The notes under the pieces: model-generated
Database searches by the model: none
What the model saw: only the letters and a program-made list of their open reading frames with translations
Told to the model about the DNA's origin: nothing
Shown: positions 1 through 16,215 of the stretch, one piece after another
How positions within the stretch are numbered: the first letter of the stretch is position 1
How the letters are laid out: every line of letters begins with the position of its first letter
Program-made: the position numbers and the translations under genes
NCBI GenBank assembly: GCA_934183305.1
Contig: CAKPSF010000003.1
Location: 10,673 to 74,672 of the forward strand
Length of the DNA: 64,000 nucleotides
From: an uncultured Clostridia bacterium
Lineage (GTDB): Bacteria; Bacillota; Clostridia; TANB77; CAG-508
Direction of reading: 5' to 3'

Positions 1-430
1 CCGCAAATTCGTCTCTGGTATTATCTGTAACCAAGTATAATGTATCTGATTTTTCATCATATAAAATGTCATAAATTATTAAATCTCCCTCAACTGTATT
101 TTGTGCCACTCTTATAAATGAGCTTTTTCTATTTTTGTAATTTTCCATAAATTCATTGTACAAATAATCATTATGCACCATTGCTCCAATTACAAAAGAA
201 TTATCTTTTTGAGCATCAAAAGAAGTATACTCACTTGGTAAATTTCTTATATCTTTATTTTGAGTCAATGTTGTATTATAGAAATCATCTACGTTTTTTA
301 TTGTGGTGTCATCATTAAGTTTATTTGCTGTCGAAACTCTACCTCTATCTACATGATTTATTATAATTCCTATAACTAAAAGTATAATTAAGAATACTCC
401 TATAATAATACATATCTTCTTTTTCATCAT
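1..430 (-). CDS. Hypothetical membrane-anchored protein. It is partial: the N-terminus is in the window and the gene runs off the window start.
   Basis: Open frame from ATGATG at 430/427 (RBS AAGGAGG 4-7 nt upstream) with no stop down to position 1. N-terminus MMKKKICIIIGVFLIILLVIGII is a signal anchor. The ORF track misses it because it has no stop in the window. Confidence 0.45.
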   Translation of the reverse strand, partial: MMKKKICIIIGVFLIILLVIGIIINHVDRGRVSTANKLNDDTTIKNVDDFYNTTLTQNKDIRNLPSEYTSFDAQKDNSFVIGAMVHNDYLYNEFMENYKNRKSSFIRVAQNTVEGDLIIYDILYDEKSDTLYLVTDNTRDEFA

Positions 431-459
431 TGTTCCTCCTTAAATTGATATTTATATTT

Positions 460-1287
460 CTATATAACATCATAATTACATTTGCCACACCAAGAGCATC
501 CATTACATCTATCTCTACTTTTGCAATTTCTGCATTTAGGTTGAATTTTAATCTCATTATACTCTAATGGATTTTGCAATTTAGATTTTAATGCCATAAC
601 TTTTTGATAAGCTTTAGGTATATGATAAGTTTTTCCATCTTTTATAAATACATTTCCAGTTCCAACAAAATTAAACTTGACATTATACTTTACACATTCA
701 TCATATAGTTTCTTTACCCAATCATAATATAATGGTCTATTTCCTTCATAATTTTCTCCATCAACTAATACTATTTCAATTTTTCCAGTCTTTAAGTATT
801 CATCCAATGTGATTTCCCCAATCATTGGTGCACACATAATTCCTTTATGTTTAAAAGGTAAATTCAATAAAATTGGGATTCGTTCATCTGCTCTTTTTTG
901 ATTTTCTGCTGTAAAAACCATAATTACATTTTCCCAGCCATCATTCCAATCATCTGGCAAATTTGCTGCAACTCTTTCTGCTCTTTTTGTTTGAAGCCAA
1001 AATGTAACATCTTTTCTATTTCTTATCATATTCCATACTTCATCTCGCCACTTATCCGCTTCTTCTAGAAAAAAATCACTAGTCATACAGACTCGTATAG
1101 TAGAACCACTTTGAATTTTATATTCTCCATTTCTATTTTTCTTTAATGGTAAATTAAAATTTGTTTTTACTTTATATATATCGCTACCATCTTTTTCTCT
1201 TTGAGAGTCAAGAAAGTACATATAGCAATTTTCACATCCTTCGCTATATTTACGACATCCATGCCAAGGATTCCATATATCATTCAA
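460..1287 (-). CDS. DUF5131 / phage Gp37-Gp68 family protein
   Basis: N-terminal WNPWHGC motif and C-terminal Cys cluster (CRNCKSRDRCNGCSWCGKC) are typical of the Gp37/Gp68 family. TTG start, confirmed by hand; GGAAGTG lies 8 nt upstream. Confidence 0.55.
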   Translation of the reverse strand: MNDIWNPWHGCRKYSEGCENCYMYFLDSQREKDGSDIYKVKTNFNLPLKKNRNGEYKIQSGSTIRVCMTSDFFLEEADKWRDEVWNMIRNRKDVTFWLQTKRAERVAANLPDDWNDGWENVIMVFTAENQKRADERIPILLNLPFKHKGIMCAPMIGEITLDEYLKTGKIEIVLVDGENYEGNRPLYYDWVKKLYDECVKYNVKFNFVGTGNVFIKDGKTYHIPKAYQKVMALKSKLQNPLEYNEIKIQPKCRNCKSRDRCNGCSWCGKCNYDVI

Positions 1288-1368
1288 ATTATATCACTTC
1301 CAGTTTTATAGAAATTACCCAATTCATTTATTGTATCTAATATTTTACTTAATTTTCCACTAAGTTTA

Positions 1369-1845
1369 TTATTCATTCTCTATCATATCAAGCATTCTTA
1401 TATGAAAACCATTTTCTTGATAAAATTTAATTGCCTTTTCATTATATCCAAACACAGCAATCATTATTTTTTCACATCCAATTGATTTTAAATAATCTCT
1501 CATCTTTTGTAATAAAGCTTTTCCTATGCCTTTTCCTCTATAATCCTTACTAACTACTAATTCAGTTATTCTACCTCTCTTTGGTACATCAAAATCATAA
1601 TTCTTGGTTTTACTATTATTAATAATGCCTACTACCAACCCTATTATTTTTCCAGCTTCTTTGTATAAAAAGATTTTGCCATCTTTTTCAGTAACATTTT
1701 TAATTGTTTCTGTAAAATATTCTTCTCTATACTCATTACCTACTATGTTATATCCCTCTATATCAATATTAACTATATATTTTTGTAATTCTACTAACAA
1801 GTCTTTTATTTCTTCATTGTATTCTGGAGTATATTCAATAATCAT
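1369..1845 (-). CDS. GNAT family N-acetyltransferase
   Basis: Acetyl-CoA binding motif RGKGIGKALL, followed by the GNAT C-terminal core YNEKAIKFYQENGF. Confidence 0.8.
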   Translation of the reverse strand: MIIEYTPEYNEEIKDLLVELQKYIVNIDIEGYNIVGNEYREEYFTETIKNVTEKDGKIFLYKEAGKIIGLVVGIINNSKTKNYDFDVPKRGRITELVVSKDYRGKGIGKALLQKMRDYLKSIGCEKIMIAVFGYNEKAIKFYQENGFHIRMLDMIENE

Positions 1846-1918
1846 AAAACTTATCTCCTTCTTAAACTACCATATTCCTTATAAAAATATCTTTTCTCCA
1901 TTTAATTAAAATTTTTTA

Positions 1919-2407
1919 TCATAGTTCTACAATATTAACTTGATTTCCGTGTTCTTTTATAATATCAATTAAGTCTAACACTTTTAACCATACTGTTGCT
2001 GTATTATCGTTTGGATGGATTCCAATTATTTGTTTATCATTAAGAAAATCTTTATCTAAATAAAATTTAACTTTTAATTCTTTATCGTTTAATAAGCCAA
2101 ATGGAGTTACACTACCAGCAGTTAAATTCATAATACTCATTAAATCTTGTTCTGAGACGAAACTTAAAGGTCTTGTGCCATTATTATTTCTAAATTCTTT
2201 CAAATTAACTCTTTTATTCCCTTTAACTGTTATAAGATAATAGTTTCTTTTCTTATCATCACGAACAAATAAATTTTTTGCATCATACTCTGGATATGGT
2301 ACTTCTATTTCTGATAGTTCTTCCATATTAAAAACTGCTTTATGTTCTGTTATTTCATACCATATATTTTTACTCTTTATAAAATCATATACTTCTTGTT
2401 TCTTCAT
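1919..2407 (-). CDS. YbaK/ProX-like aminoacyl-tRNA deacylase domain protein
   Basis: About 160 aa. The GIHPNDNTATV segment and overall layout resemble YbaK/prolyl-tRNA editing domain proteins. Confidence 0.55.
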   Translation of the reverse strand: MKKQEVYDFIKSKNIWYEITEHKAVFNMEELSEIEVPYPEYDAKNLFVRDDKKRNYYLITVKGNKRVNLKEFRNNNGTRPLSFVSEQDLMSIMNLTAGSVTPFGLLNDKELKVKFYLDKDFLNDKQIIGIHPNDNTATVWLKVLDLIDIIKEHGNQVNIVEL

Positions 2408-2417
2408 ATTCTTCCTC

Positions 2418-3011
2418 TTAGTTTTTTATAGAAAATTCTTCTTGTTCTTGATACCATTCTGCGAATTTTTCCATAGCAGAATAAGAACCATCTACTTTTT
2501 TTCTATTATCTCTTTCCTGTTCATTCATTTCAGCTAAAGTTTTATCAAAACCTTTAGGTTTAAAAACATACCATAAATCAGACCACTTTTCTTTTCTATC
2601 TTGTCCTTGTATTTTATTTGATAAATTACCAGGATGTTTTCCATAAAAATATCGTATTTCATTTCCATCATGATATGCTAGGCATTCGTTAAATGCACAT
2701 GTTCTATTATTTTTATTTTCCATTAATTTTAAAATTCCATCTATTCCAATTGTTTCTAATGAAAAATTAACAAAAGCTCTTGGAAAACCATTTAATTCAT
2801 CAATTCTAAAATCCGTATCTAGTGCAATGCAAGGTTTTTTTACCATCTCATAGGCTTGACAGACTTTTGCTTTTGCAATTTCTTGTATATCATCACTTCG
2901 TGGTTCATCTAATTCAAAGTCAATTGTATTTAATTTTATATTCTTAAAGTATTTCTCTGCTGATTTAGCTTTTCCTTTATTATGTGTTACAAAAATTATT
3001 TCTTTTTCCAT
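2418..3011 (-). CDS. Divergent Ham1/RdgB (ITPase)-like non-canonical NTP pyrophosphatase family protein
   Basis: IIFVTHNKGK aligns with the RdgB N-terminal VVLATGNxGK motif. IAKAKVCQA...IALDTDF aligns with ENAxLKAR...DDSGL. Start re-assigned to ATG 3011, which has RBS AGAGGAG 8 nt upstream; the track start is GTG. Confidence 0.45.
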   Translation of the reverse strand: MEKEIIFVTHNKGKAKSAEKYFKNIKLNTIDFELDEPRSDDIQEIAKAKVCQAYEMVKKPCIALDTDFRIDELNGFPRAFVNFSLETIGIDGILKLMENKNNRTCAFNECLAYHDGNEIRYFYGKHPGNLSNKIQGQDRKEKWSDLWYVFKPKGFDKTLAEMNEQERDNRKKVDGSYSAMEKFAEWYQEQEEFSIKN

Positions 3012-3025
3012 TTTTGTCACTCCTC

Positions 3026-4012
3026 TTATAAATTAGCTTTTATAATTTTATCTTTCTTCATCTTATCTATTATTTTTGCATAAACTCTATCTCTTATCCA
3101 TGGTTCAGATGACATTTCCAACACTTCATTAATTGGAACCCATTTAACTCCGCTATTTTCGTCTTCTTTTATATGTATTTCTTCATTTTCATCAGCTTCT
3201 AATAAATATGTTACATTAATATGAACATGTGAGCCAACATATTTGCCTCTTTTTTCATGTCCATTTACATTAATTAATTCTAGTGAATAAATATCCTTAG
3301 AAATAGGAGTAACATTTTTTATTCCTGTTTCTTCTTTTGCTTCTTTCATAGCCACATATAAAAGGTCACTATCTCCATCACTATGTCCACCAGTCCAAGC
3401 CCATGAATTATAAATTTTATGATATATCATTAAAATTTTTGTTCTTTCTTTATTAATAACAAATGCAGAACTAGTAAAGTGTCCATATTCATTTTGTCTT
3501 GTTAATACATCATCAAAATCATTTATATACTTTAGCATTATGTTTCTGTCCACTTCTTCTTGCTCATTATATGGAATAAATTTTTCAATATTTTCTTTTA
3601 AATTGCCCATATCAATTTTCTTTGTTTTATTTTTCTCCATATATTCTTCAATTAGTGGTATTCTAGCTTTATCTTTTTCTCTGTTACTATTTTTTAAAAA
3701 CTCATAATACATTTCTATACTTTGAAGATTAAGTCCATCGTATCTTTCTATTTTCCAAGATTCTTTGGTATCAACTACACATTCTATTTTATCACTAACT
3801 TTATACCATCCATTTCCTTTTTCTTGTAGTTTATAATTATTTTTTAGTTCCTGCAATCCTTTTTCTGTAACAGCAATATCAAGGTCTCCAGCATCAGGAT
3901 ATATATTGCGAATAACTAATGAGCCACTTGATAAAATCCAATATTCATTTTTATCTAATTTTAAACTTTCAATTAATTCCATAAGTTCTTGTTTATTCAT
4001 TCTTTTTTCCAT
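3026..4012 (-). CDS. Fusion protein: Lnu/ANT(2'')-like nucleotidyltransferase N-domain plus C-terminal NUDIX hydrolase domain
   Basis: N-domain EYWILSSGSLVIRNIYPDAGDLDIAV aligns with LnuA TYWLDGGWGVDVL...HRDIDIDFD. C-domain carries the Nudix box GGHSDGDSDLLYVAMKEAKEETGI. It sits 14 nt upstream of the Ham1-like gene. Confidence 0.55.
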   Translation of the reverse strand: MEKRMNKQELMELIESLKLDKNEYWILSSGSLVIRNIYPDAGDLDIAVTEKGLQELKNNYKLQEKGNGWYKVSDKIECVVDTKESWKIERYDGLNLQSIEMYYEFLKNSNREKDKARIPLIEEYMEKNKTKKIDMGNLKENIEKFIPYNEQEEVDRNIMLKYINDFDDVLTRQNEYGHFTSSAFVINKERTKILMIYHKIYNSWAWTGGHSDGDSDLLYVAMKEAKEETGIKNVTPISKDIYSLELINVNGHEKRGKYVGSHVHINVTYLLEADENEEIHIKEDENSGVKWVPINEVLEMSSEPWIRDRVYAKIIDKMKKDKIIKANL

Positions 4013-4046
4013 ATTTCAACTTTTCCTTAATAATTTTTTATATAAT

Positions 4047-4568
4047 CTATATAATAGACGCTATTCCAATTACTCCTATCATTGCCAAGCCTAGACTAGG
4101 CATAATAATGCCAGGTAAATCTTGAAATTTATCAGGATTAATCTTTCTAAATAGTACACCAATAATTAAGAATACTATTGAATTTAATAAAGCCATCCAC
4201 TTTGGTACACTTAGTGCTCCATTTAATACTGCTACTGCAACACATATATCTGCAATCATTAATACACAATATATTAACATAAATGGAAATATTATAGTTT
4301 TATAAAAGCCTTCCAATGTATTGTCAGCAAGTTCAAAATTTGTTTTACCATTATCAGTAATCCTTTTATAAATAACTGCTTGAATACATAACATAGAATG
4401 AATAAATAAACCGCCTACGCAACCAATAAATCCTGTTATTAAAATTAAATTAGATAATATTACATTATTTTCTCTAATTATATTTGCTATAGCATAAAAT
4501 CCAAATCCTAATAATATCACTCCAAACATGGCAAATATTATAGACAATCCAAATCTCCATTCAGACAT
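4047..4568 (-). CDS. Hypothetical polytopic membrane protein
   Basis: Multiple hydrophobic segments. The start is uncertain: the track start at 4640 is TTG with no RBS, while ATG 4568 has a weak GGAG. Confidence 0.35.
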   Translation of the reverse strand: MSEWRFGLSIIFAMFGVILLGFGFYAIANIIRENNVILSNLILITGFIGCVGGLFIHSMLCIQAVIYKRITDNGKTNFELADNTLEGFYKTIIFPFMLIYCVLMIADICVAVAVLNGALSVPKWMALLNSIVFLIIGVLFRKINPDKFQDLPGIIMPSLGLAMIGVIGIASII

Positions 4569-4730
4569 TTCACTCCAATTGCTATCAATATTCTTTGATG
4601 TTCCTAATTTTTTATTACCTTTTCCTTTTAAATCAAACAATAAATCTCAAACGCAACATAATAATCCACCAATTAATCCCATAATACTAAAAATTAAATT
4701 CATAATATACCTCCAATTTTAAATATCACA

Positions 4731-5150
4731 TTATATTTCATTATCCAAAACTTGTATTTTTACAACTTCTTCTAGTGGCGTAGGACTAATGCTTCTGATT
4801 ATTTCATCAGTAAAAGTAATTGATATATTAGTTCCTTCTTTCAAATCAGAAACTTTAATTTTTTTGCCTCTCCAAACCATATTCATACTATCATCTACTT
4901 TAAATGTAAAATTTCCTCTGTAATTTATATCATTTACTTCTAATCCTTTTACATTAAGATGAAAGCTACCATCGTTATATTGTTTTATGCTTTGTATATT
5001 TGCATAAAATGTTTGAGCATCATATGCCTTTCTAATTGCTAAATCATTTTTAGGTGCATTTCTTTGACCTATAAATAAGCCAATTGTAAAACTTATTCCA
5101 ATAATTACTATTAATCCTAGTATAATAACGATTTTTTGTTTTGTATTCAT
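4731..5150 (-). CDS. Hypothetical secreted or membrane-anchored protein
   Basis: Start re-assigned to ATG 5150, which has RBS AAAGGAGG 8 nt upstream. N-terminal signal anchor KQKIVIILGLIVIIGISF. Confidence 0.4.
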   Translation of the reverse strand: MNTKQKIVIILGLIVIIGISFTIGLFIGQRNAPKNDLAIRKAYDAQTFYANIQSIKQYNDGSFHLNVKGLEVNDINYRGNFTFKVDDSMNMVWRGKKIKVSDLKEGTNISITFTDEIIRSISPTPLEEVVKIQVLDNEI

Positions 5151-5236
5151 AAATTTTCCTCCTTTTAAATTTAAAATATAAACTAGCTTCATTTATTCAA
5201 TTAATAAGTTAAACTTTATTATGTAATTACAATAAA

Positions 5237-5821
5237 CTATTTTCTATAAAAATGAAAATCGCAACAATCTTTACCGTAACCCAAAGTTTTAGTTCGTGAA
5301 AATCCTAATTTTTTTAAATTTCCATAAGTCACATCATCTACATCACAAAAAAGGCAGCACAACTTTTCACAATCATTTTCTACACAAGCTGTATGCCAAA
5401 GACATTTTTTCATTGTCACATCAAAAGATTTCTCATCATGACTTTGTTCACTATCCCATAAGTCAGTTTTGCGTACAACTTTAAGGAATATCTTACTATA
5501 AAGTGAATAAAAACATGGTATTTTTTCCATTTTCACCATAGATAAATGCTTTTGTTGGGCAACTATATCAAGCATATATTTTCGCATATACTTATATACA
5601 TCTTCTTCTGAAAAGTCTTCTTTTTGTAAAACTTTATACAATGCTATACGAGGAAGAATTGTTTGGACAAGTGTTTTTGTTTGATTTTCTGACTTGTTTT
5701 TTATATTTTTGATAAGCTCATTAAGCATTATCGCCTGTTTATTAAACAAGTTTTCTCCTTTATCCACGCCAAACTCTTCAATTAAAAATACTTTTATTTG
5801 TTTTTGCTGCTTTATATTCAT
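5237..5821 (-). CDS. Hypothetical protein with Cys-rich C-terminus, possibly of the ATC-hydrolase-like family
   Basis: C-terminal CLWHTACVENDCEKLCCLFCDVDD...DCCDFHF cluster. The family assignment is tentative. Confidence 0.3.
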   Translation of the reverse strand: MNIKQQKQIKVFLIEEFGVDKGENLFNKQAIMLNELIKNIKNKSENQTKTLVQTILPRIALYKVLQKEDFSEEDVYKYMRKYMLDIVAQQKHLSMVKMEKIPCFYSLYSKIFLKVVRKTDLWDSEQSHDEKSFDVTMKKCLWHTACVENDCEKLCCLFCDVDDVTYGNLKKLGFSRTKTLGYGKDCCDFHFYRK

Positions 5822-5928
5822 GCTTATAACACCTCCACAAATTAATAATGAATTAGTTCTTTGTCATTCGTTTGGATTGCCTTATTTTTAATTTAACAAA
5901 TTATATTTATAGTTATGCCTACCATATA

Positions 5929-6591
5929 CTATAAATTTGTTTCTATAATATAGTTTAAATCTTCTATTGTTTTATCTATATTCATCATACCATTTCCAAT
6001 AGGATAATAAACTGGATACACTTTATACTCTACGTTAGATATGTTTTTTAAAAAATTTTGTTTTCTACATTGAGATACCGATATTTTTTTACCAAGTACA
6101 ATAGAACTCACTTGATTTCCAAAAGTTATAATTACCTTAGGATTAATTATTTCTATTTCTTTGTATAATAAGTCTAGATATTGATTATAAACCGAATTAG
6201 GTAATATTCTAGCATCTACTTGTGTACATTTTCCTAAATTAGTTATAAAGTATTTATGTTTCTCCACATTATCATATACTATATCGGCAAATTCTTCATC
6301 CCATTCCTGTGATTTTTTAGAAATAATATCATTATATATGTTTTCATCAAGTAGCCCTATTTTATAAAATAATTTCCATATATTTTTAGTTCCAATCCAA
6401 GGCGATCTTCTGCCTTTCCAACTTGGAACCGATGCAATATTCTTTCCAGTTGGATTCATAAAAATAAAACAAAAATCAGGATTATTAGTACAACCTCCAT
6501 TATATATAGATGTCAATTCTTTTGCTCCATACTGTAGCTGTAATTTGTCATATTCTGAATTTAATTCCTCTATTTTTGCTTTATGTAACAT
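5929..6591 (-). CDS. Uracil-DNA-glycosylase-superfamily-like protein (tentative)
   Basis: ITNLGKCTQVD and IITFGNQVSSIVLG resemble UDG family-4-type motifs. The canonical GEGPG motif is absent, so this is low confidence. Confidence 0.3.
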   Translation of the reverse strand: MLHKAKIEELNSEYDKLQLQYGAKELTSIYNGGCTNNPDFCFIFMNPTGKNIASVPSWKGRRSPWIGTKNIWKLFYKIGLLDENIYNDIISKKSQEWDEEFADIVYDNVEKHKYFITNLGKCTQVDARILPNSVYNQYLDLLYKEIEIINPKVIITFGNQVSSIVLGKKISVSQCRKQNFLKNISNVEYKVYPVYYPIGNGMMNIDKTIEDLNYIIETNL

Positions 6592-6621
6592 ATATACTTT
6601 TTCTCCTTTTATTTTTATCTA

Positions 6622-6939
6622 TTATATATTGAAGTCATTATTTATATAATCTGTATAATATATAACTTTCTTACCTAATTTTTTTGCATATTCTATTTCT
6701 AAATTTGTACTATTTCCAATATAATTATTTACATTTATTACTAATATAGCATCTGACAATTCTATCCTCTTAAAATGTGCTTGTTTTAGTTTTATCAGTT
6801 GTTCTTCTGTTATATTACTATTCTTTAACACTTGATAAACTGGTGTAAGAACACACTTGCCATCTAAAGCTAATTTTTGTGCAACTTCCATCATTTCTTT
6901 TTGAAATCTCATACTTCCACATAAAGTTATTATTTTCAT
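6622..6939 (-). CDS. Hypothetical small protein (nucleoside 2-deoxyribosyltransferase-like fold suspected)
   Basis: 105 aa, MKIITLCGSMRF...VLTPVY. The family call rests on weak resemblance only. Confidence 0.25.
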   Translation of the reverse strand: MKIITLCGSMRFQKEMMEVAQKLALDGKCVLTPVYQVLKNSNITEEQLIKLKQAHFKRIELSDAILVINVNNYIGNSTNLEIEYAKKLGKKVIYYTDYINNDFNI

Positions 6940-7090
6940 TTTACAATATTCTCTCCAAATTTTTACATATCTAATTCATATAATAGCACAAATATAATTC
7001 TAATGTAAACTATCTAATAAATAATTTTTCAAAAAAGAACTGATAATAAGTCACAATAAAAACCCCATAATATATGGGGTTTTTATATGC

Positions 7091-7351
7091 CTACTCATCG
7101 TCTTTAATTTCTTCAAAACGATATTTTTGAGTTGCATTTGGATATTTTTCATGATCAACTTCAGACAGAAACATACTTAACGGACGTGCATAGATTCCAT
7201 CTTTATGGTTTGTTTTGCCGTTATTGTCCATACAACAATAAACGACTAACTCTTCGCCTGTTTCACTATGTTTAGCCACTGTAATTACAAATGACCTTGC
7301 CCCTTTAAAATGTCTCCACATCGTAAACGGTTTTACTTCTCTGTTTTCCAT
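7091..7351 (-). CDS. DUF1653 domain protein
   Basis: [21 protein letters not shown]...[25 protein letters not shown]. Start re-assigned to ATG 7351 (RBS AAAGGAG 8 nt upstream). The track ORF 7091..7546 is an N-terminal over-extension. Confidence 0.6.
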
Positions 7352-13391: not shown

Positions 13392-13745
13392 TTAATCAAA
13401 TTGTGTTTGCCAGTTTTCATTATTAGAAGCTTCAAAACACATTTTAATCTGTTCTTTACTTGTTTTTTCTTCTGCTAAGTTAGTTGGTAGTTCTTCTAAT
13501 GAAAAGTATTTTATTTCAGTTGTTTCAATATTTTCAACAAATTTTCCACCAACAACATTGCATAAAACAAATACTTTGCATATGCCATAAGCATATTGTG
13601 GTTTATTATGTTTGTTCCTATCTTGGATAGCAATTATTTTTACTGTTTCAATATCTAGTCCTGTTTCTTCCTTTACTTCTTTTATTGTATTTCCATTGCT
13701 CATTTTAACCATTTTTCCATTTTCATAACCTCTAACCTTACTCAT
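13392..13745 (-). CDS. N-terminally truncated NUDIX paralog (possible pseudogene)
   Basis: Retains only the distal Nudix box (TIKEVKEETGLDIE) and the C-terminal half. There is no GGxxExGE, and the upstream in-frame extension is blocked by the stop of the preceding gene 8 nt away. Confidence 0.4.
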   Translation of the reverse strand: MSKVRGYENGKMVKMSNGNTIKEVKEETGLDIETVKIIAIQDRNKHNKPQYAYGICKVFVLCNVVGGKFVENIETTEIKYFSLEELPTNLAEEKTSKEQIKMCFEASNNENWQTQFD

Positions 13746-13753
13746 TTCATAAA

Positions 13754-14170
13754 TTAACTTTTTGTATCACATTTTAAGAACTCTTTAATTTGCCTTATTA
13801 TATGAGGAATATTATAGTTTCCAGCAAACTTATCATTATTTAGCAAACCATCGTCAATTTTAACCCATTCTAATTTGTTTTTTTCTTCTACTAATTTAAC
13901 TTCATTTTCTAGAATACCATAATATACTTGTAAATTGTTTTCATATTTAAAATAATTTAAATCCATAAAATGATCTAACTTAATATCAGTATTACTGATT
14001 CCAGTTTCCTCAAATAACTCCCTATAAGCTGCATTATCATTGCTTTCTCCTTCTTCTACTTTTCCTCCAACGAAGTTATACATTCCTTTATATGGTTCTT
14101 TTGCCCTTATACAAAAAAGGCAATCACTTAAATCTTTATTAAATACAACTATTAAATTTAGTTTTCTCAT
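13754..14170 (-). CDS. NUDIX hydrolase
   Basis: Complete Nudix box GGKVEEGESNDNAAYRELFEETGI. ATG start with GAGGT RBS. Confidence 0.8.
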   Translation of the reverse strand: MRKLNLIVVFNKDLSDCLFCIRAKEPYKGMYNFVGGKVEEGESNDNAAYRELFEETGISNTDIKLDHFMDLNYFKYENNLQVYYGILENEVKLVEEKNKLEWVKIDDGLLNNDKFAGNYNIPHIIRQIKEFLKCDTKS

Positions 14171-14304: not shown

Positions 14305-14751
14305 TCAAACATCTTTTTTTATTTTTTCTAATATTTCCTGAGGTGAATATTCAGACGTATTAATTACTAGATTTGCTGAATCTGGTATATATATTGAGTC
14401 ACCAGAAGTTATCCTGCAATTAATTTCATCTTCATCAATTCCCCTTGCTAATAACCGTTTATATGTTTCTTCCTTTGAGCACCATAAATGTACCCAACAA
14501 GTAGAAGGACAAATACTTACAATTTTCTTGGCAATTGTAATTGATACTGGAGATGCACAATACCCACTTTTATTTAGGCAATCTAACCAAGATTTCGGCG
14601 TTCCATAATATTGTCCTAAATTTTTAAGTAGTGCAAATTCAAGAGATGGTTCTAGATACTCATTTTTATTAAAATTTTCAATAAATTGTTTGGTATTAAT
14701 AAAAATAGCATCTATTCCATTCCGCTCTCCTTTTCTTGGTTTTCTAGTCAT
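14305..14751 (-). CDS. Guanylate-kinase-like domain protein lacking the P-loop
   Basis: MTRKPRKGERNGIDAIFI aligns with Gmk TTRxPRxGExDGxDYxFV (the post-P-loop region). YYGTPKSWLDCLNKSGYCASPVSI aligns with YYGTSKEAVEEVLASGKDVILDI. RLLARGIDEDEINCRI aligns with RLxxRGxDSEEVIxKR. The first in-frame start is this ATG, with a TGA 10 codons upstream. There is no GxxGxGKS and no obvious SD. Confidence 0.55.
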   Translation of the reverse strand: MTRKPRKGERNGIDAIFINTKQFIENFNKNEYLEPSLEFALLKNLGQYYGTPKSWLDCLNKSGYCASPVSITIAKKIVSICPSTCWVHLWCSKEETYKRLLARGIDEDEINCRITSGDSIYIPDSANLVINTSEYSPQEILEKIKKDV

Positions 14752-14790: not shown

Positions 14791-16215
14791 TTAACTTATT
14801 TTTTTCTTTAACTCTTCAATTAATTTGCTATCAAAATTCCTTTTTTCTTCATCTGACATTTCATCCCAATTTTTTCTTCTATTATTAGATTCAAACACCG
14901 CTCCCAATGGATAACCTGTTCCATTATATTCTTTATTTAAGTTTTCTTTATTTAAACGTCCATTATTTATATTTTTTATTAATTTAGTTTCACCATTTGG
15001 AAATGCAATTGCTATGTTTTGTTCAAAGTGGCATGTATAATCTTTTAAATTTTTAGTCTTTTCTTTTAAATAATTCCAAAATTGCTCATTTGTTGCATTA
15101 TCTGGAAGCTGTCCTCCCCATCTTCTGGTTGCTACACCTGGCTCACCTTTTAATTCGTGAATAAAGAATCCGGTATCATCTCCGATAGTAATAAGCCCAC
15201 TTATTCCACACCATGTTCTAGCTTTTGCAATAGAATTTTCTTCAATTGATGTTGTTCCTTCAATTACATCAATATCATCTTCGTAATCTTTTAATGTTAA
15301 AGTTTCATATTCATCACCCAAATATAATTTATAATCAGCTATTTTAGATGGATTTTTGGAAGCAATTAATATTTTCTTTTTATTTGCAGGTAATATAATT
15401 GGGCAAAACCTTTTTTTAATATATTTTGAATATTCATCTAAATTTTCAAAATATGGTACTGATATAAGTAATTTTAAATTAAAATTTAAATTGTCTTTAA
15501 TTTTATTCAAAATTATTCGTTCATTATCCATTCTCTTTGATATTGTAATTTTTCCCATATCTTTTGAATCTCTTACAAATAAAAGCCATGGTTCTATTCT
15601 TCTTTCCAATAAAGTTTCCACGCCACTTTGGATAGTTTTTGTTTTTATGTACTCCCCATTATAAGAGGCTTCGCTTAACAAAATAACTTTAGATAAGCCT
15701 TCACTTTTTAACCTTTGAATCATAGGTGTAAATATAGGATCAACCTCTGGGTCTGTAATTAATCCTCCAATTTCAATAAATAGTTTTGAAGGTTTTCCAA
15801 TATTGCTCCACATTTTATGTATTCTATACTCAACATATAATGACATGTGAGGATTTATTTGAAGATTTTCGTTTTCACCATATTCATTTATAAAATCACG
15901 GTATAGTTCTCCTCCTAATAAATAATGTTCTCTTCCCCATGTTTTTCCTTTATTGTATTTCTCGTAAATGCCGAAATCATCATGTCCAATAGCCGTATGT
16001 CTACCATTTGCATTTGTATTTAATAAACCATCAAACTTTATTGCATCAGAGCCTTCTGTATTTGCAAGTAATTGAGCAACTAAAGTTCCTTTTCCAATAT
16101 CGGATCTTGGGTATCCTAGTACAAAATAATATTCAATATTTTCGTTAGGTTTATACATTTCTATTAAATTATTTAATTGTCTAATTGTTTTTCTGTTTTC
16201 ATAAACTCCACTCAT
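14791..16215 (-). CDS. Fusion protein: CTP-synthase N-terminal (synthetase/amidoligase) domain homolog plus divergent Ham1/ITPase-like domain; no glutamine amidotransferase domain
   Basis: Residues 30-270: [23 protein letters not shown] aligns with PyrG [37 protein letters not shown] aligns with [21 protein letters not shown] aligns with VVLVEIGGTVGDIE. Residues 280-474: [13 protein letters not shown] aligns with RdgB KVVLATGNVGKV, and IAKARTW...[25 protein letters not shown] aligns with ILKARHA...[24 protein letters not shown]. No GATase Cys/His motif anywhere. ATG start with RBS AAAGGAG. Confidence 0.55.
   Translation of the reverse strand: [474 protein letters not shown]

Follow-up and report, generated by a model that had tools for sequence, protein, structure and literature searches.

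A Probable Recent Deletion Joins a Small Nucleotidyltransferase-Like Domain to a NUDIX Module in an Uncultured Gut Clostridium

Introduction

A nucleotidyltransferase (NTase) placed N-terminal to a NUDIX hydrolase has a precedent in the NadM-Nudix proteins (nicotinamide mononucleotide adenylyltransferase/ADP-ribose pyrophosphatase); NadM is a Rossmann-type (HxGH) adenylyltransferase and does not have the Pol-beta fold. Other described NTases include the lincosamide nucleotidyltransferase LnuA (PDB 4WH5/4FO1) and ANT(2'')-Ia (PDB 4XJE/4WQK), which carry a C-terminal drug-cleft domain of ~65–85 amino acids (aa) built of beta-hairpins and a helical bundle, the NTases of unknown function TM1012 (PDB 2EWR), DUF6036, and DUF2204, and the NTase toxins MenT and AbiEii. 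Much of the drug-binding cleft of ANT(2'')-Ia is formed by its 85-residue C-terminal domain, which also determines specificity (PMC4313920). Here we describe a 328-aa chimeric open reading frame (ORF) in which a small NTase-like domain, the N-domain, is followed by a NUDIX module. It lies at 3026..4012 on the minus strand of the window, by which we mean the whole stretch of DNA that was analyzed (64,000 nucleotides of contig CAKPSF010000003.1, assembly GCA_934183305.1, from an uncultured Clostridia bacterium). The window has a G+C content of ~27% and nearly all of its genes are on the minus strand. The chimera is probably young and made by deletion, with two modules that act independently of each other.

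The N-domain shares 12–14% identity with LnuA and ANT(2'')-Ia, with no profile match. It is chromosomal, ~30–50 residues shorter than these enzymes, and has a much reduced C-terminal substrate-binding part: after the nucleotidyltransferase (NT) core, its model has just ~45 residues where LnuA and ANT(2'') have the drug-cleft domain. The window sequence matches none of the TM1012, DUF6036, and DUF2204 models. MenT and AbiEii are weaker structural matches than LnuA and TM1012, and the window domain is much smaller than theirs, has no conserved partner gene, and has no PADLOC match. The NadM-Nudix models of NCBIfam touch the NUDIX half weakly (aa 203–302, E 7e-6, 25.6 bits versus a cutoff of 354), there is no match to NadM in the N-terminal half, and the window protein is not a member of the NadM-Nudix group. 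On the hydrolase side, the C-terminal module aligns end to end with a NUDIX protein of solved structure (PDB 3FCM), including an N-terminal helical extension and a variant Nudix box, while the ASCH-NUDIX proteins of gut Clostridia carry an ASCH domain where the chimera has the NTase-like domain. The parts of the fusion are of known kinds, and its architecture is a new variant.

Results

Two Separate Genes in the Nearest Relative

The chimera is a single uninterrupted ORF that ends in a TAA stop codon at 3026–3028; a likely ribosome-binding site (RBS), AAGGA, lies 12 nt 5′ of its ATG. The nearest relative of the locus is L094, a 38.8-kb contig from a Hadza gut metagenome that is syntenic with the window. 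Its genes encode, in order, a 108-aa DUF4406-like protein, a UDG-like protein, proteins of 96 and 139 aa, a DUF6796 protein, the N-domain, ASCH-NUDIX, and a Ham1-like protein. The two halves of the chimera are separate in L094, where a 133-aa NTase-like gene is followed, after a 17-nt spacer, by a 302-aa ASCH-NUDIX gene.

By blastn, the window and L094 are 98.1% identical through the first two bases of codon 127. There, 354 nt of L094 (6962–7315) correspond to 13 nt in the window (3620..3632, minus strand), which encode part of K127 and then N-K-T-K and align to neither L094 parent gene; this junction scar was delimited from the blastn comparison together with the junction sequences. On the 3′ side of the junction, identity to L094 is 94.4% through the NUDIX and Ham1 sequences. 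The 354 nt that were removed held the tail and stop codon of the N-domain gene, the spacer with its RBS and start codon, and ASCH codons 1–105. The two L094 genes lie in different frames (offset 2), and a single frame was restored because the net loss was 341 nt (2 mod 3). The deletion was unusually tidy: the N-protein was kept almost in full and the NUDIX module in full, and only ASCH was lost. Judged from this alignment, the chimera derives from two separate, adjacent genes by a recent deletion.

The 13-nt scar matches AAAAATGGAACAAAG (ASCH codons 16–20) at 13 of 15 positions, a likeness that is indistinguishable from chance in A-rich sequence. Were the scar a vestige of ASCH, two deletions would be implied. 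Synonymous divergence (pS) between the window and L094 jumps at the junction, from 0.00 in the N-domain to 0.19–0.23 in the NUDIX and Ham1 sequences, and so abrupt a change suggests that a recombination boundary coincides with the deletion or lies close to it and that there is mosaicism around the locus. In place of the ATC_hydrolase-family gene of the window (194 aa, 5237–5821, minus strand), L094 (5097–5387) and the fusion-bearing contig L003 (669–959) have an unrelated 96-aa ORF, and because of this exchange we regard the 5′ island as polymorphic among near-identical strains.

Reality and Distribution of the Fusion

A preliminary description of the window, made from its letters alone, had raised the concern that the ORF might be a sequencing or assembly join of two genes. 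Separate genes do exist in related strains, as L094 shows, but the join itself is biological and not an assembly error. The identical protein (P0001) occurs on 7 contigs and also has an NCBI source, and the same junction is present in at least five independently assembled samples (ENA, Logan). Over the 987-nt gene, the contigs L001–L003, from three samples, do not differ from the window, L096 differs at 7 positions, and L095 at 28. Since independent samples share this junction to the letter while differing elsewhere, the fusion is real.

Among 7355 matches, the window architecture is found in one 90%-identity cluster (P0001) only. This cluster also contains 133-aa stand-alone forms (P0391-3) on ~30 contigs. 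The fusion is absent from all 80 species-representative loci recovered from a collection of 185,579 species, and the same fusion with conserved neighbors, which the preliminary description had hoped to find in other genomes, does not emerge: there is the one cluster, none of the 80 species loci has the fusion, and the neighbors vary. Two loci (L014, L019) show the unfused order, with the N-domain gene followed by ASCH-NUDIX. The related loci come from metagenome-assembled genomes of uncultured "Clostridium sp." or Clostridia of human and animal guts. By this distribution, the fusion is a recent strain-level event in one lineage and not a conserved two-enzyme system.

The N-Terminal Domain Has an NTase Fold

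The N-domain (aa 1–127; 3632..4012, minus strand) is ~127 aa long and equals the entire stand-alone protein of 124–133 aa found in relatives; it is 82–88% identical to such stand-alone proteins of 124–135 aa. The length of roughly 160 aa proposed earlier is too great, as residues 137–180 belong to the NUDIX module, forming a helical extension at its N-terminal end that stand-alone 3FCM has as well. A search of Pfam at E≤10 gave only a weak, irrelevant match to DUF6744 on the N-terminal half, and NCBIfam at E≤0.01 matched the NUDIX half only. At the same thresholds, the window protein has no match to PF10706 (Aminoglyc_resit) or to the NCBIfam antimicrobial resistance (AMR) models. A domain search had been expected to confirm a PF10706-type NTase plus NUDIX, of which only the NUDIX part is borne out. 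No Lnu or ANT model is matched by any of 49 family members at E≤0.1.

Searched at E≤0.001 against 1.84 billion 50%-identity cluster representatives, the domain proved to belong to a small family: 299 representatives match it, mostly stand-alone proteins of 124–135 aa. In a 49-member alignment, D43, D45, K113, and D114 are nearly invariant, and the position of E77 is usually acidic. The AlphaFold model built on this alignment has a predicted local distance difference test score (pLDDT) of 95.1, and its best solved structural neighbors are TM1012, LnuA, and ANT(2'')-Ia. The model has the Pol-beta-type NT fold with its hG[GS], [DE]h[DE]h, and h[DE]h motifs, represented by G30-S31, D43-L-D45 (the D43-x-D45 pair), and E77; R111-x-K113-D114 completes the set of motif residues. 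The catalytic residues D44, D46, and D86 of ANT(2'')-Ia sit at almost the same positions as D43, D45, and E77 (PMC4313920, PMC6965139). The catalytic and family-invariant residues are intact in every fused allele, and the frame is open in all copies.

Among PDB sequences, the family profile reaches only TM1012 (E 0.0045). Pfam DUF6036 (PF19502, an NTase of unknown function) is matched by 13 of the 49 homologues, with a best E of 1.1e-5, and by P0372 with an E of 2.5e-8; the window sequence itself does not match this model. The N-domain family is probably related to DUF6036 and yet a separate, unmodelled family. The earlier assignment to the Lnu/ANT(2'') group therefore holds for fold and motifs, in which the likeness resides, and membership in that sequence family is not established, given the lack of model matches and the 12–14% identity. 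The 81–85% coverage of some ASCH-NUDIX matches had suggested that the N-terminal half might be homologous to ASCH; we rejected this idea on the grounds of the NTase fold and the clean replacement seen in the DNA alignment.

The NUDIX Module and Its Partners

The NUDIX module (aa 132–328; 3029..3619, minus strand) consists of a helical extension (~137–178), the Nudix fold, and a C-terminal helix. Pfam NUDIX (PF00293) matches aa 182–305 (E 1.2e-10, 41.9 bits versus a cutoff of 21.1), and 3FCM ("Hydrolase, NUDIX family," 197 aa) aligns to aa 137–320 with an E of 8.8e-70. Because the 3FCM alignment begins there, we place the start of the module near residue 137, with a helical extension of ~45 residues. 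A C-terminal NUDIX hydrolase with a canonical box had been noted before; the hydrolase is confirmed by these matches, but the box, GHSDGDSDLLYVAMKEAKEETGI (aa 209–231; 3320..3388, minus strand), is a variant on which a strict regular expression for GX5EX7REUXEEXGU fails. It reads G209-HSDGD-S-DLLYVAM-K-E-A-K-E-E-T-G-I231, with E replaced by S, R by K, and U by A, and it retains the glutamate cluster E224/E227/E228 that corresponds to the glutamates of REUXEE. Relatives and 3FCM have the identical variant.

The closest relatives of the module are ASCH-NUDIX proteins of ~301 aa, to the NUDIX part of which it is 94–96% identical. ASCH-NUDIX is present in 51 of the 80 species loci, and the NUDIX module stands without an ASCH match in 28. 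Directly 5′ of ASCH-NUDIX, the N-domain gene is found in only 2–3 of the 51 (L014, L019, L033). These counts indicate that ASCH is the ancestral and usual partner of this NUDIX module. Independently of the fusion, ASCH has been deleted in frame in other strains, giving forms of 209–210 aa (P0060, P0077, P0090, P0103, P0105). These begin with the first 8 residues of ASCH (MLHKMKLN), retain a few residues from within the domain, and continue into the NUDIX module.

To describe the contexts of the N-domain, we used 34 metagenome loci found with alignment set A4 by searching for the N-domain itself. Their 53 immediate neighbors are heterogeneous (ASCH 5, NUDIX 3, HD 3, RhuM 3, GNAT 2, Ham1 1), and the closest stand-alone N-domain genes occupy yet other contexts. 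In one species, UMGS1594, the N-domain gene 5′ of an intact ASCH-NUDIX gene is a pseudogene with seven stops, identical in sequence in three contigs (L033 1651–2028; L108 1263–1640; L109 1631–2008). Its pattern is odd: TAA, TGA, and TAG stops replace K, W, E, and R codons, there is no frameshift, and identity is otherwise 65%. Just 5′ of its stand-alone NTase-like gene, L008 has an inserted IS110-family transposase (4118–5320); its sister contigs L009 and L010 have a 178-aa NUDIX gene at that position.

The N-domain family is also fused to GNATs (at least 6 representatives), NTP_transf_6, and mini-RNase III. Fusions with several members are P0379 (249 aa), P0248 (324 aa), P0247 (324 aa), and P0254/P0283/P0333/P0358/P0251/P0355; their partners are mini-RNase III, NTP_transf_6, an unassigned 190-aa N-terminal domain, and GNATs on either side.

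As to selection, the NUDIX halves of two fused alleles, those of the window and L095, differ at 17 synonymous and 6 non-synonymous sites, a ratio of non-synonymous to synonymous divergence (pN/pS) of 0.08. By this measure the NUDIX half is clearly under constraint. The long-term pN/pS of the N-domain is 0.27–0.32.

Ham1 and the Wider Neighborhood

Downstream of the chimera lies a Ham1/ITPase-like gene of 197 aa (2418..3011, minus strand), called with the same length in L001 and L002. Translation probably starts at the ATG at 3011, which follows GAGGAG by 8 nt and the TAA of the chimera by 14 nt; an alternative GTG at 3020 (ORF 2418..3020) is possible but overlaps the RBS GAGGAG. The full profile of Pfam PF01725 is matched (E 3e-23, 83.1 bits versus 22.5), and all NCBIfam XTP/dITP diphosphatase equivalogs score below their cutoffs (best 121 versus 203). 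On these scores the gene product is best described as a divergent member of the Ham1/ITPase (RdgB) family, in agreement with the earlier description of a divergent Ham1-like gene 14 nt downstream. Outside the fused lineage, Ham1 stands directly 3′ of the NUDIX gene only in the contigs L004–L007 and L094.

Farther downstream are a YbaK-like tRNA_edit gene (1919..2407, minus strand) and a GNAT gene (1369..1845, minus strand), both recognized by Pfam and both correctly noted before. They adjoin the fusion in L001 and L002 and are absent 3′ of Ham1 in L004 and L094. The proposal that these genes form a small operon of resistance-like enzymes finds no support in the comparison, since the NTase-like and Ham1 genes are not conserved neighbors of NUDIX, and the YbaK-like and GNAT genes are missing from the loci of the nearest relatives. 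A promoter and terminator scan of 300–7200 found no terminator on the minus strand, and promoter-like sites were fewer than in shuffled sequence, so that the scan sets no operon boundaries. Upstream, the chimera is preceded by a gene for a DUF6796 membrane protein (4047..4640, minus strand), which is syntenic with L094 and lies within the 98%-identical left flank.

The first 16 kb of the window is dense in genes of the nucleotide house-cleaning type, with at least three NUDIX ORFs, and the neighborhood resembles a variable island with genes for small house-cleaning enzymes and not a dedicated operon. A UDG-like gene is found at 5929–6591 and a DUF4406/nucleoside 2-deoxyribosyltransferase-like gene at 6622–6939. 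Two further NUDIX ORFs, of 138 and 117 aa, lie at 13392–14170 and 14305–14751 (both minus strand), with a short guanylate-kinase-like ORF beside them; the second matches the C-terminal part of the Pfam model only and may be a fragment. The other Ham1 copy of the window is part of a 474-aa protein (14791–16215, minus strand) that joins a CTP_synth_N-like region (aa 30–240) to Ham1p_like (aa 282–461), itself an unusual fusion and one that is conserved in the close relative L004 (442–1866). A DUF5131 protein (460–1287, minus strand; Pfam E 3e-37) matches PDC-M30B and PDC-M41B, two candidate defense models of PADLOC (E ~1e-28).

Discussion

The comparisons presented here allow us to propose how the chimera arose and what it may do. 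The ancestor would have had an NTase-like gene (133 aa), a 17-nt spacer, an ASCH-NUDIX gene (302 aa), and a Ham1-like gene, all co-directional, an order that survives in L094. The 354-nt deletion with its 13-nt scar brought the NUDIX module into the reading frame of the NTase-like gene, and the product would be a protein with two complete catalytic modules on a short linker. With its origin and the identities of its domains in hand and the motif residues intact, we expect each module to keep its own activity. The N-domain would be a two-metal (D43/D45/E77) transferase that places a nucleoside monophosphate, or a phospho-alcohol as the LicD/FKRP enzymes do, onto an acceptor hydroxyl. The C-terminal module would be a Mg-dependent pyrophosphohydrolase of a nucleoside-diphosphate derivative, probably a non-canonical nucleotide in view of the Ham1 partner and the house-cleaning gene neighborhood. 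The main effect of the fusion would be to link the expression of a gene pair that was probably co-transcribed already, at the cost of ASCH, and the chimera would be co-expressed with the divergent Ham1 NTP pyrophosphatase. Catalytic coupling is neither required nor indicated. A make-and-break cycle, in which one half nucleotidylates a molecule and the other cleaves it, had been suggested in the preliminary description; it is unsupported, as the comparative evidence consists of a recent deletion product in one 90%-identity cluster, with ASCH as the ancestral partner.

Several observations weigh against a chimera of two independently active modules. In the N-terminal half, the window differs from L095 at 1 synonymous and 4 non-synonymous sites and from L094 at 0 and 4, respectively, numbers too small to establish constraint on the fused N-domain. 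The full-length AlphaFold2 model, with a pLDDT below 50 in the NUDIX half and a shallow alignment, is uninformative on the NUDIX half and on the arrangement of the domains. Searches of the literature on ASCH plus Nudix and on TM1012 turned up no functional study of either parent family, and the independence of the two activities is our inference. Finally, ASCH or ASCH-NUDIX is the most frequent neighbor of the N-domain gene, and three other 50%-identity representatives (P0285, P0314, P0377) join the N-domain to NUDIX domains of unrelated kinds, which together leave room for some functional link.

Such a link is the substance of the best-placed rival explanation, in which NUDIX would cleave the same nucleotide-linked compound that the NTase makes or uses and the fusion would have been selected for channelling or balancing. 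We think this unlikely. The parent genes are adjacent, 17–59 nt apart, in L094, L008–L010, L014, and L019, and the three further NUDIX fusions and the place of ASCH and NUDIX as the commonest neighbors of the N-domain gene point the same way. What is more, the structural group of TM1012, LnuA, and ANT(2'') includes FKRP-type enzymes that use CDP-X compounds, and these are a NUDIX substrate class (PMC6965139). However, adjacency is limited to 2–3 of the 51 ASCH-NUDIX species loci and 3–5 of the 34 N-domain loci, and each of the three other NUDIX fusions is represented by one sequence on one contig. In addition, one species has an N-domain pseudogene beside an intact ASCH-NUDIX gene, and the fusion studied here is confined to one lineage. 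Fusions with GNAT and NUDIX genes are also to be expected by chance, because such genes are abundant in these genomes.

Slightly less probable than coupling is a neutral or decaying chimera, in which ASCH, and perhaps the N-domain, would be dispensable, only the NUDIX half would matter, and the N-terminal half would be drifting. This would fit the repeated loss of ASCH, the pseudogene in another species, and the 8 non-synonymous versus 1 synonymous differences in the N-terminal half among close relatives, to be set against the long-term pN/pS. On the other hand, these counts are very small and lack significance, the window sequence is common to the comparisons behind them, and the open frame and the intact catalytic and invariant residues of all fused alleles speak for a maintained N-terminal half.

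We hold it to be about as doubtful that the N-domain (~128 aa, TM1012/LnuA-like) represents a minimal-transferase family of gut Firmicutes that shares a substrate with NUDIX, ASCH, and GNAT enzymes. If it did, the common substrate might be a modified nucleotide or an RNA end, and the repeated fusions with NUDIX (four lineages, including that of the window) and with GNATs would be evidence, of the Rosetta-stone type, for a new pathway of nucleotide or xenobiotic modification. The chimera would then be a natural experiment in which an NTase replaces ASCH as the substrate-presenting module for NUDIX.

A latent antibiotic or xenobiotic enzyme is more improbable again. The N-domain would in that case be an O-nucleotidyltransferase of a minimal Lnu/ANT type with a lincosamide, aminoglycoside, or similar compound as its substrate, and the GNAT fusions of its family would mirror bifunctional resistance enzymes. 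Besides the low identity and the absence of matches to Lnu, ANT, and AMR models in Pfam and NCBIfam, the ~45 residues after the NT core stand against the 85-residue specificity domain of ANT(2'')-Ia (PMC4313920), and TM1012, an equally close match, has no known function. The genes are, moreover, chromosomal and lie in variable islands of small housekeeping-type enzymes. An assembly or sequencing artifact that joined the two genes found separately in related strains is a negligible prospect in view of the recurrent junction with single-nucleotide differences elsewhere. A defense or toxin NTase is effectively excluded, as neither the fusion, the N-domain, nor Ham1 has a PADLOC match and the neighbors vary.

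The biological weight of a young deletion-made chimera with independently acting modules is small: it would be a fusion at the level of strains of an uncultured gut Clostridium and gives no hint of a new mechanism. It is nevertheless a documented natural domain swap for which both parents, the breakpoints, and the scar have been identified, and it illustrates how compact, AT-rich genomes make chimeric enzymes by short deletions. It also points to a small, unmodelled NTase family whose nearest characterized structural relatives are antibiotic nucleotidyltransferases, and it shows that ASCH-NUDIX proteins, which are widespread, carry an ASCH domain that is dispensable or replaceable.

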